Below are positions 12,688-14,540 of a stretch of DNA of 64,000 nt, piece by piece (within the stretch, counting starts at the first letter, position 1; each line of letters begins with the position of its first letter). The notes beneath the pieces were generated by a model. That model ran no database searches and had not been told where the DNA came from. It worked only from the letters and a program-made list of their open reading frames with translations. The DNA is taken from NCBI GenBank assembly GCA_035495615.1, contig DATJFP010000047.1, positions 4,106-68,105 of the forward strand, given 5' to 3'. A program made the translations under genes and the position numbers. This stretch comes from Verrucomicrobiia bacterium. Its GTDB lineage: Bacteria; Omnitrophota; Omnitrophia; Omnitrophales; Aquincolibacteriaceae.

Positions 12688-14091
12688 ATGGATGATTCAA
12701 AATCCGGGAAAAAATTGAACGGCTGGGTGGCGGGCGTTGAAGGCCCGGTCGTCGAAGTGAAATTCGACGCCGGCCAGGCGCTGCCCGCGATTTTCGAAAT
12801 CCTCGAAACAGACACCAAAGACGGACGCAGGGTCGTACTCGAAGTCGCCGAGCACAGCAAGGGAAACATTGTCCGCTGCATCGCCATGTCGTCCACCCTC
12901 AACCTTCAGCGGTCGGCTCCCGTCCGCCGCGCCGGGCCTTCGATCGAAGTCCCGGTGGGCGCGGAATGTTTCGGGCGGATCATGAATGTTCTCGGCGAGC
13001 CGATCGACAAGCGCGGGCGCATCGAGACGTCCGAGACCAAAGCGATCCGGGTCCACCTCGGAGGAAACAGGCTGGACAAAAAAGAGATCAACGTCCAGAA
13101 GGCGGAGCTCCTCGAGACCGGCATCAAGATCATCGATCTGCTTTTTCCCATGGTGAAAGGCAGTAAGACGGGGATTCTGGGCGGCGCCGGCCTGGGCAAA
13201 AGCGTGCTGATCCTCGAACTCATCCAGCACATCGCCGAGCGCCATCACGGCGCTTTCGTCTTTACCGGCGTGGGAGAGCGCGTTCGCGAGGGCAATGAAC
13301 TGTATCATGAAATGAAAACGCACAACCTGCTGTCCCGCGGCATGCTGGTATACGGGCAGATGAACGAGCCGCCCGGCGCGCGTTTCGGCGCGGCCTCCAC
13401 CGGCATCACGCTGGCAGAATCCATCCAGAAACAAAACCGCGACGTGTTGTTTTTCGTCGATAACATCTTCCGTTTCGTGCAGGCGGGCGCGGAGATTTCC
13501 ACGCTTCTGGGCCGCGCCCCGTCGGAAACCGGATACCAGCCCACGCTGGCTTCCGAAGTGGCCGAATTTCACGAAAGGATCCGGGCCATGGAAGGTGCGG
13601 GATCGGTGACCTCGATCGAGGCCGTGTACGTGCCCGCCGACGACTTGACCGACCTGGCGGTGGTCACGATCTTCACCTACCTGGATTCGATCATCGTGCT
13701 TTCGCGCGAACGCGTGCAAATGGGCCTTTATCCCTGCATCGATCCGCTTCAGTCCTCGTCCTCCAACATGGCGCCTGAAATCGTGGGCAGCCGTCATTAT
13801 AAAACCGCGATGGAGGTGCTGAAAACGCTCAGCCGTTACGAAGAATTGCGGCGTATCGTTTCCGTCGTCGGCGTGGATGAACTTTCCAAGGCCGACCGGA
13901 CGCTTTACGAGCGCGCCCGGAAGATCCAGAATTTTCTCACCCAGCCTTTCATCGTGGCCGAAGTCTTTTCCGGCACAAAAGGCGTGTATGTGACACTTGA
14001 TCAAACCCTGGCCGGCTGCGAACGGATTTTGTCAGGCCGCCTGGACCGGCAACCCGAAGAGACTTTCTACATGATAGGAGCCTTGACGTGA
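12688..14091 (+). CDS. atpD: F1 ATPase beta subunit (467 aa), divergent motifs
   Basis: ATG 8 nt after the gamma stop; the ORF-track start at 12247 is an upstream in-frame extension. Walker [11 protein letters not shown] (canonical GGAGVGKTVL). [28 protein letters not shown] and YVPADDLTD blocks are conserved. DELSEED is replaced by DELSKAD. Confidence 0.85.
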
Positions 14092-14540
14092 ACCCGCGCG
14101 GAAAAAAATTGGGGGAAATCCTGATCGAAAAACGCATCATCAATGAAACGCAGCTCAAGATCGCGCTCGACGAACAGAAGCAGTCCGGAGAGTTCCTCGG
14201 CAAATGCCTTATGGCTCACGGCTGGGCCACCGAAGAGCAGGTCATCCAGGCCCTGTCGGAACAATTCGGGATTCCGTATATCCAGATCAGGCCGGGAGAT
14301 GTCCAGTGGGAGGTCGCGGGGCAGTATCCTTCCGCCGTATTTACCGAGCACCATTGCTTCCCGATCCGCCAGGACACGGTTTCCGTAACGCTCGCGATTT
14401 CCGATCCTCTGAATGCCTGGGTCATGAGCGAAATCCAGACGCACGCCCGGGGCCGCGCCGTGAAGCTGGTGCTCGCCGTGCCATCGCAAATCGAGAAAAT
14501 CATCGACGAATACACCCGGCGGATTGCCGGAGCAAAATGA
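14088..14540 (+). CDS. Stand-alone tandem MshEN-type (GspE/PilB N-terminal, c-di-GMP-binding-type) domain protein, 150 aa
   Basis: GTG start overlaps the atpD TGA (GTGA, 14088-14091). Two copies of the RLGxx(LVI)(LVI)xxG(LVI)(LVI)xxxxLxxxLxxQ-type motif: [24 protein letters not shown] and [24 protein letters not shown]. The first copy has R in place of the motif G. Confidence 0.65.

Follow-up and report, generated by a model that had tools for sequence, protein, structure and literature searches.

A stand-alone MshEN domain gene between the F1-like ATPase and GspE-type genes of Omnitrophota encodes a probable trans-acting cyclic di-GMP receptor

The MshEN domain, a well-known receptor for cyclic di-GMP (c-di-GMP), is found in many protein architectures (Wang et al., 2016; PMC5013675). 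In the N-domain of the Vibrio cholerae T2SSE ATPase MshE, solved with its ligand (PDB 5HTL), c-di-GMP is contacted by R9, L10, G11, L25, L29 and Q32 of a first motif and R38, L39, G40, L54, L58 and Q61 of a second, with G18 and G47 at the turns (PMC5013675). The isolated domain (residues 1-145) binds c-di-GMP with a dissociation constant (KD) of 0.5 uM and its N-terminal subdomain, MshEN_N (residues 1-62), with a KD of 0.35 uM; the MshEN fold of XpsE does not bind it, and non-binding MshEN domains are without the Gly, Leu and Gln contacts (PMC5013675). The Thermus thermophilus ATPase PilF carries three such modules (GSPII-A/B/C; 8PDK, 6F8L), all fused in cis, of which GSPII-B stacks K167 and L196 on the guanines and binds with a KD of 6 nM, the K167L variant binding tighter still; the consensus at motif position 1 was accordingly widened to (R/K/L), and D266 is the single residue of the C-subdomain to touch the ligand (PMC11731258). 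In the Xanthomonas citri PilB(N)-PilZ-FimX relay (7LKO), a separate small protein of PilZ fold carries the c-di-GMP signal to the type IV pilus (T4P) ATPase by docking on a non-binding N-domain of MshEN fold. Omnitrophota, finally, have been reported to possess a non-respiratory, "symbiotic" type-2/3-like F-type ATPase co-located with type IVa pilus genes, within 10 kb on 57 of 66 contigs (Seymour et al., 2023; PMC10066038). Here we describe a small gene at the junction of these two modules in a stretch of 64,000 nucleotides, hereafter the window, taken from contig DATJFP010000047.1 (positions 4,106 to 68,105) of assembly GCA_035495615.1. The gene encodes an MshEN domain without an ATPase, and we consider it probable that this protein acts in trans as a c-di-GMP receptor made of a single MshEN (GSPII) domain and serves, as a conserved subunit or regulator, a GspE-driven machine resembling a type II secretion system (T2SS) or T4P.

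The 150-residue protein, HTL47654.1, is annotated "hypothetical protein" in its metagenome-assembled genome (MAG), and comprises a single, complete MshEN domain, in which an MshEN_N four-helix bundle is followed by an MshEN_C alpha/beta subdomain, with no ATPase attached. The NCBIfam profile NF053729 ("c-di-GMP_motif"; "cyclic di-GMP-binding domain, MshE-related") matches residues 7-59 with 67.7 bits (E=5.5e-19, cutoff 38) and the Pfam profile PF05157 (MshEN) residues 60-145 with 53.9 bits (E=1.8e-14, cutoff 23.1), both above their curated thresholds, and no unrelated family was assigned. The first match comprises two 24-residue motifs, K7-L-G-E-I-L-I-E-K-R16-I-I-N-E-T-Q-L23-K-I-A-L27-D-E-Q30 and F36-L-G-K-C-L-M-A-H-G45-W-A-T-E-E-Q-V52-I-Q-A-L56-S-E-Q59, separated by the 5-residue spacer K31-E35. 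On alignment to solved c-di-GMP-bound MshEN/GSPII structures the contact equivalents are present as L8, G9, L23, L27 and Q30 in motif I and L37, G38, V52, L56 and Q59 in motif II, V52 being a conservative substitution for Leu. A reading made from the sequence alone had described the protein as a tandem of MshEN-type domains composed of two copies of an RLGxx-type motif. Both copies are there, the second beginning with F instead of R or K, but the two motifs span only 53 of the 150 residues and the remainder is MshEN_C, so that the protein is a single domain and not a tandem of domains. The same reading correctly noted that the conserved glycine of the first repeat is an arginine (R16), and its view of the domain as detached from any ATPase holds as well: HTL47654.1 ends 5 residues past the MshEN domain and has no match to PF00437, the ATPase domain with its Walker motifs, and is therefore not a GspE/PilB, despite the label "PilB" on a JGI entry of identical sequence.

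Structure prediction agrees with this assignment. A confident AlphaFold2 (AF2) model built from 31 homologues (predicted local distance difference test, pLDDT, 88.3; predicted template modelling score, pTM, 0.78) shows helices at residues 8-14, 20-33, 37-43 and 49-60, and then a beta1-3/helix subdomain, that is, a four-helix bundle and a three-stranded alpha/beta subdomain; the turn at R16 is modelled at a pLDDT of about 96. Its best Foldseek match in the PDB is 5HTL, the V. cholerae MshE N-domain with c-di-GMP (TM-score 0.79/0.85, rmsd 2.1 A, 139 columns), followed by structures of PilF GSPII-B with bound c-di-GMP and by 7LKO, the complex of X. citri PilB(N) with PilZ (TM-score 0.77). With MshE the window protein shares the two-subdomain fold, the twin motif, the spacer length and the contact Leu, Gly and Gln residues; it differs in being only 26% identical, in not being fused to a T2SSE ATPase, and in having K7, F36 and R16 in place of R9, R38 and the turn glycine G18. 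It resembles the tightly binding PilF GSPII-B in carrying K and then a hydrophobic residue at the first positions of its motifs, and D106 aligns with PilF D266. Unlike in PilF, the module is a separate polypeptide.

The first line of evidence for the proposed function is the conservation of the ligand contacts across a family of at least 78 non-identical stand-alone proteins of 144-167 residues, over which all conservation figures were computed in window numbering. L8 is conserved in 94%, G9 in 96%, L23 in 92%, L27 in 95% and Q30 in 99% of them, and in motif II the figures are 96% for L37, 100% for G38, 91% for Leu at position 52, 99% for L56 and 100% for Q59. All ten contacts are canonical in 72 of the 78 proteins and nine are in the remaining 6, and these positions rank among the most conserved of the protein, with homologues only about 31-66% identical to that of the window. 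Motif I opens with K in 59% of the family and with R in 27%, and motif II with F in 90%. Given that the (R/K/L) extension of the consensus (PMC11731258) implies that hydrophobic residues are tolerated or beneficial at position 1, F at this place is, by analogy, plausibly compatible with binding. The glycine of turn 1 is present in 73% of the family; the other 21 proteins have K (9/78), R (4/78), N, E or Q among their residues, and R16 is thus, as judged from the alignment, a tolerated minority state.

The second line of evidence is gene order. Of 32 proteins (150-235 residues) retrieved by a word-indexed search, the best 29 were 150-159 residues long and, where named, mostly labelled Omnitrophota/Omnitrophica. 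On three long contigs with homologues (L001-L003) the order is a very large open reading frame (ORF), epsilon (N-domain only), c-like, b/delta fusion, alpha, gamma, beta, MshEN, GspE, GspF, pseudopilins, GspK and PilM/PilN, and the same succession of F1-like and GspE-type genes as in the window recurs in L001-L013 and L084-L159. In a context-blind scan for a peptide pattern of the family, covering 185,579 species genomes, the match proved to be a stand-alone ORF at 13 loci, and all 13 lie directly 3' of an F1-like beta gene; gspE comes next in 12, which are all those whose contig runs past the match. Eleven of these loci are labelled Omnitrophota and two belong to "Planctomycetia" bins, and at most of the other 67 loci of the scan the match is the N-terminus of a full-length ATPase of another phylum. 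In a second scan, of metagenomes and seeded with the divergent gamma subunit, the stand-alone gene is present in 42 of the 51 loci that extend past beta (about 82%). Beta adjoins gspE directly in five of the others (L096, L104-L106, L131), a 200-nt gap separates them in one, and in three (L110, L141, L148; about 10210-10990) a gap of roughly 700 nt, in which neither PilZ nor MshEN was found, is filled by a 219-residue tetratricopeptide-repeat (TPR) protein whose N-terminus is signal-like. The MAG from which the window comes bears the label "Verrucomicrobiae bacterium", and phylum-labelled related loci are, bar the two "Planctomycetia" bins, all Omnitrophota; the taxonomic label of the window contig may be imprecise.

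Packing within the loci is tight on both sides of the gene. In the window the GTG start codon (14088-14090) overlaps the TGA stop codon of the beta gene (14089-14091) by 4 nt as GTGA, as the sequence-only reading had stated, and AGGAG stands 7 nt 5' of the start; the + strand of the window shows neither a terminator-like nor a promoter-like site at the junctions of the gene. Across the related loci the median gap is 4 nt from beta to MshEN (n=51) and likewise 4 nt from MshEN to gspE (n=46), and overlaps of 4 nt are frequent; the estimates rely on heuristic start assignment. The tie to the beta gene that had been proposed for the translation of this gene is therefore real as regards packing, but is matched by an equally tight one toward GspE. 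Two variants of the order were seen: L008 has two tandem stand-alone genes (9484-9960 and 9986-10459) between beta and gspE, giving three GSPII modules with the cis copy, as in T. thermophilus PilF, and L140 has a gene for a receiver (REC) domain (10723-11088) between stand-alone MshEN and gspE.

Judging by sequence comparison, the stand-alone proteins are an old and distinct lineage. The best match of each is always another stand-alone protein, at a median of 129 bits, whereas the median is 58 bits to the cis MshEN domains found at these loci and 66 bits when the comparison is with PilB N-domains from other phyla. They carry signature residues (E35, F60, W74, F80, C90, E117) that are shared by at least 86% of them and almost never seen in cis MshEN domains; at position 117 the stand-alone proteins have E and the cis domains R, a reversal of charge that hints at a complementary interface. 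The window protein itself has W74, Y80 and Q117 at these positions.

The neighbouring GspE does retain an N-domain copy of its own, as had been claimed (residues 6-146), and this copy is 31% identical to the stand-alone protein. The partner GspEs of the family fall into two groups, 28 with a long C-terminal extension and 21, including that of the window, without a PilZ extension. In most of the 28 the extension bears the PilZ signature RxxxR...[D/N]xSxxG (PF07238 is annotated for L002 and L003), the PilZ-tailed genes being those of L002, L003, L005-L013 and L109-L159. The cis MshEN of the extended GspEs keeps at most 6 of the 10 canonical contacts in 25 of 28 cases and 9 or more in none, with changes of G9 to S, A or Y, Q30 to A, I or V, G38 to Q, A or I, and Q59 to K; in the 21 GspEs of the other group, 9 have at least nine contacts, 10 have 7-8 and 2 have at most 6. 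Because the cis domain of the partner is so often degenerate, it is the stand-alone copy that, by these residue counts, most consistently keeps an intact MshEN c-di-GMP site at these loci. T2SSE ATPases in which two to four MshEN domains are fused in cis are common, with three in PilF, two in L058, and further examples in P0037, P0057, P0079 and P0088.

Taken together, a receptor role is supported by the family-wide conservation of the contact residues and by conserved synteny, and partnership with GspE by that synteny and by the fused multi-MshEN ATPases. We infer ligand, partner and regulatory output from the gene, its predicted fold, the conservation of its residues, its synteny and these fused equivalents, and of the functions that the sequence-only reading had offered, that of a receptor or regulator acting on GspE is the best supported. 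The N-terminal four-helix bundle (residues 7-59) would bind one c-di-GMP, held by two Leu triads, two Gly backbone amides and two Gln, with K7 and F36 stacking. The C-terminal, N1-like subdomain would dock onto the machine, most likely at the N-domain collar of the GspE hexamer or at the GspL-like PilM-PilN platform. The N1-like subdomain binds GspL in established T2SS structures, which makes the platform protein another candidate for docking; Foldseek gave weak structural matches of the window protein to EpsE-N1/EpsL (2BH1) and GspE/GspL (4PHT). The stand-alone protein would thus amount to an extra N-terminal GSPII domain supplied in trans, comparable to the cis-fused domains of PilF, and assembly of the pseudopilus or pilus would be gated by its c-di-GMP occupancy, with co-expression presumably ensured by the tight packing with the beta gene and gspE. 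This arrangement would resemble the X. citri relay in that a separate small protein carries the signal to the ATPase, with the difference that the trans factor there has a PilZ fold and the MshEN fold is the non-binding party, whereas in the present case an MshEN with an intact predicted site would itself be the trans factor.

Several observations weigh against this reading. Every locus holds all candidate partners (GspE, the GspL-like protein and the F1-like ATPase), between which gene order cannot discriminate, and for all members of the family both c-di-GMP binding and interaction with a partner are predictions. Neither motif of the window protein fully fits the relaxed pattern [RKPN]hGxxhhxx[GAS]hhxxxxhxxxhxx[QNKRYWST]: motif I departs from it only at the turn (R16, where G, A or S is expected) and motif II only at position 1 (F36, where R, K, P or N is expected), at which published work has tested only R, K and L and not F (PMC5013675, PMC11731258). 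Folds of MshEN type can also act through protein-protein contacts alone, as that of X. citri PilB(N) does with PilZ (7LKO), and the gene is not indispensable, given that 9 of the 51 gamma-seeded loci are without it. Lastly, regular-expression scans of the 64-kb window and about 0.98 Mb of related loci, which cover flanking DNA only and are uninformative for that reason, gave no GGDEF motif of a diguanylate cyclase, and an Rfam search of the whole window found no c-di-GMP riboswitch, its only hits being three tRNAs. The EAL and HD-GYP scans of the same sequences gave no credible match either, the window having only stray matches to the EAL, GGDEF and PilZ patterns. T2SS-like loci, pilZ genes and GGDEF domains have been linked to the giant genes of Omnitrophota (West-Roberts et al., 10.1101/2023.11.21.568195), and c-di-GMP signalling in the lineage is indicated by the latter two and by the canonical PilZ tails on many partner GspEs.

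Among the alternatives, we regard as rather unlikely, though the least so, that the free domain is a decoy which vies with the GspE N-domain for the GspL-like PilM-PilN site and thereby acts as a c-di-GMP-dependent brake on assembly. Such competition would suit the N1 fold of MshEN_C with its weak matches to the GspL-bound structures, the presence of a GspL-like PilM-PilN fusion at the locus, and the fold that stand-alone and cis domains share at 31% identity. However, the residues W74, F80, C90 and E117 (R in cis) argue for a distinct surface and not for mimicry, an inhibitor co-translated at perhaps 1:1 with its target would be unusual, and the fused multi-MshEN ATPases suggest cooperation.

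Less probable still are two further proposals that we rate about equally. The first is that the protein is a structural subunit that works independently of ligand, or else a buffer for c-di-GMP without a specific partner; in its favour one may point to XpsE (PMC5013675) and the X. citri PilB N-domain as MshEN folds that do not bind c-di-GMP, to R16 and F36 in the window copy, and to the lack of a GGDEF motif in the window and the related loci scanned. Yet the Gly, Leu and Gln contacts that are lost in non-binders are here 91-100% conserved, and stay so despite divergence of the remaining sequence to about 35-45% identity; a buffer without a partner is also at odds with the strict synteny. The second is that the protein docks on the alpha3-beta3 or b-delta complex and links it, depending on c-di-GMP, to the GspE/GspF platform in a hybrid machine with two motors. 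The gene does lie exactly at the junction of the two modules, overlapping the beta stop codon, and F1-like genes precede it in each of the 13 context-blind stand-alone hits. Against this coupling stand the equally tight spacing to gspE, the loci in which beta and gspE adjoin without the gene, and the presence of both modules in every locus, such that co-occurrence cannot tell the partners apart; moreover, we know of no MshEN domain that binds an F1 ATPase. In its boldest form, to which we give a similarly low probability, the stand-alone MshEN would be a c-di-GMP-gated clutch coupling a rotary F1-like ATPase (c-ring and b/delta stator, with no proton-channel a subunit) to the GspE/GspF/GspL-like platform, in a two-motor surface machine with which ultra-small Omnitrophota attach to or attack their hosts.

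That the gene is an artefact of annotation (a fragment of a pseudogene, the 5' end of gspE set apart by a frameshift, gspE read-through, or a recent copy of part of the neighbour's N-domain) has next to no probability: it does lie directly 5' of a gspE with a homologous N-domain and shares its reading frame in the window, but two in-frame stops (TGA 14538-14540 and TGA 14559-14561) precede gspE, the gene has its own Shine-Dalgarno sequence and start codon, its length is kept in the at least 78 homologues, and both the low identity to the neighbour and the closer mutual similarity of the stand-alone members rule out a recent copy.

A free MshEN has precedent in sequence databases, where ATPase-less proteins with one to three MshEN domains and no other Pfam-detected domain are common: an exhaustive HMMER search returned 35,720 MshEN representatives at E<=1e-3, and among the best 150 of these 53 are single-domain proteins of 149-168 residues and others have two or three domains. 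The window family is set apart from them by its strict beta-MshEN-GspE synteny and its own signature residues, and no characterised single-domain MshEN protein was found in the passages of the literature searched. The linkage of F1-like and T4P genes has already been published, and the window is such a locus, with giant ORF, F1-like genes and then GspE/F/G (PMC10066038); a term search of that paper gave no occurrence of c-di-GMP, and none of the passages it returned mentions the small gene between beta and gspE. Against the literature searched, three points appear to be new: that the small gene is a conserved part of the locus, in about 82% of cases; that it holds the best-preserved MshEN c-di-GMP site while that of the ATPase decays; and that the stand-alone proteins form a distinct lineage with a surface signature of their own. 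These loci of F1-like, T2SS/T4P-like and giant-protein genes are the main genomic clue to attachment or predation by uncultured Omnitrophota nanobacteria, and the location of the best-conserved site in the small gene implies that the apparatus is under c-di-GMP control, with an apparent division of labour in which the trans protein retains sensing and the cis domain of the ATPase degenerates. As a defined and syntenic set of single-domain MshEN receptors, these proteins would be the MshEN counterpart of stand-alone PilZ adaptors, and a short soluble protein offers an in vitro handle on the control of the machine.

The features of the cluster are collected in Table 1. F1-like alpha, beta and gamma genes stand within 10 kb of GspE/F/pilin genes beside a very large ORF (118-22053 as a whole). 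The "atpD" that the sequence-only reading placed next to the gene is a beta subunit, but one that belongs to an atypical F1-like cluster. Alpha (526 bits) and beta score above the canonical atpA/atpD cutoffs of the hidden Markov models, with gamma (66 bits against a cutoff of 194), epsilon (54 against 67), c (22 against 85) and also the b/delta fusion, by far, below theirs, and no a subunit is encoded in the F1-like clusters of the window, L001-L013 and L084-L163, which share one gene order. Judged by its gene content (GspG, GspK, the PilM-PilN fusion and a weak T2SS-M), the window machine looks T2SS-like; neither a secretin nor PilT was found in its GspE-type gene cluster. The PilM-PilN fusion has the architecture known from GspL.

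Table 1. Coordinates of the MshEN gene, its parts and the neighbouring genes (positions of the window)
Feature	Position	Strand	Basis
Truncated epsilon, N-domain only, 79 aa	9098-9337	+	profile searches
c-like, 72 aa	9334-9552	+	profile searches
b/delta fusion	9596-10315	+	profile searches
alpha	10305-11789	+	profile searches
gamma	11786-12679	+	profile searches
F1-like ATPase beta subunit ("atpD")	12679-14091	+	Pfam ATP-synt_ab, TIGR01039 568 bits
Shine-Dalgarno-like AGGAG, within end of beta gene	14076-14080	+	sequence
Stand-alone MshEN protein gene	14088-14540	+	ORF list of the window, PF05157 and NF053729 matches, 78 non-identical homologues
GTGA junction, MshEN start / beta stop	14088-14091	+	sequence; many -4 overlaps in related loci
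Predicted c-di-GMP motif I, residues K7-Q30, turn glycine replaced by R16	14106-14177	+	NF053729, family conservation
Predicted c-di-GMP motif II, residues F36-Q59	14193-14264	+	NF053729, family conservation
MshEN_C (T2SSE_N / N1-like) alpha/beta subdomain, residues 60-145	14265-14522	+	PF05157, AF2 secondary structure
GspE/PilB-type assembly ATPase, 554 aa, own intact N-terminal MshEN, probable partner	14583-16247	+	PF00437 428 bits, PF05157, NF053729 70.6 bits
GspF	16247-17458	+	profile searches
GspG, passes TIGR01710	17511-17975	+	profile search
Minor pseudopilins	17972-19025	+	profile searches
GspK	18940-20004	+	profile searches
PilM-PilN fusion, resembling GspL	19956-21494	+	profile searches
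Weak T2SS-M-like (subtype-b match)	21478-22053	+	profile searches

Some minor observations concern the flanks. The giant ORF 5' of the F1-like cluster (118-8169, +; 2683 residues) has only faint Ig-like or Reelin-subrepeat matches. It is followed by a 305-residue protein (8135-9052, +) with an N-terminal signal- or transmembrane-like segment and a C-terminal transmembrane segment, for which Pfam and NCBIfam gave no match; it is kept, at 35-55% identity, directly 5' of epsilon in nearly all related loci, and in some of them it matches the C-terminal end of the giant ORF. On the other side, a Rotamase_2 protein resembling a peptidyl-prolyl isomerase (22406-23470, +) follows the T2SS-M-like gene, and the cluster ends at glyQ/glyS (23528-26579). 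Farther on, an ORF of 1992 residues (31793-37771, +) with no Pfam match lies where the AT skew is extreme (+0.31 to +0.47 at 32-38 kb).

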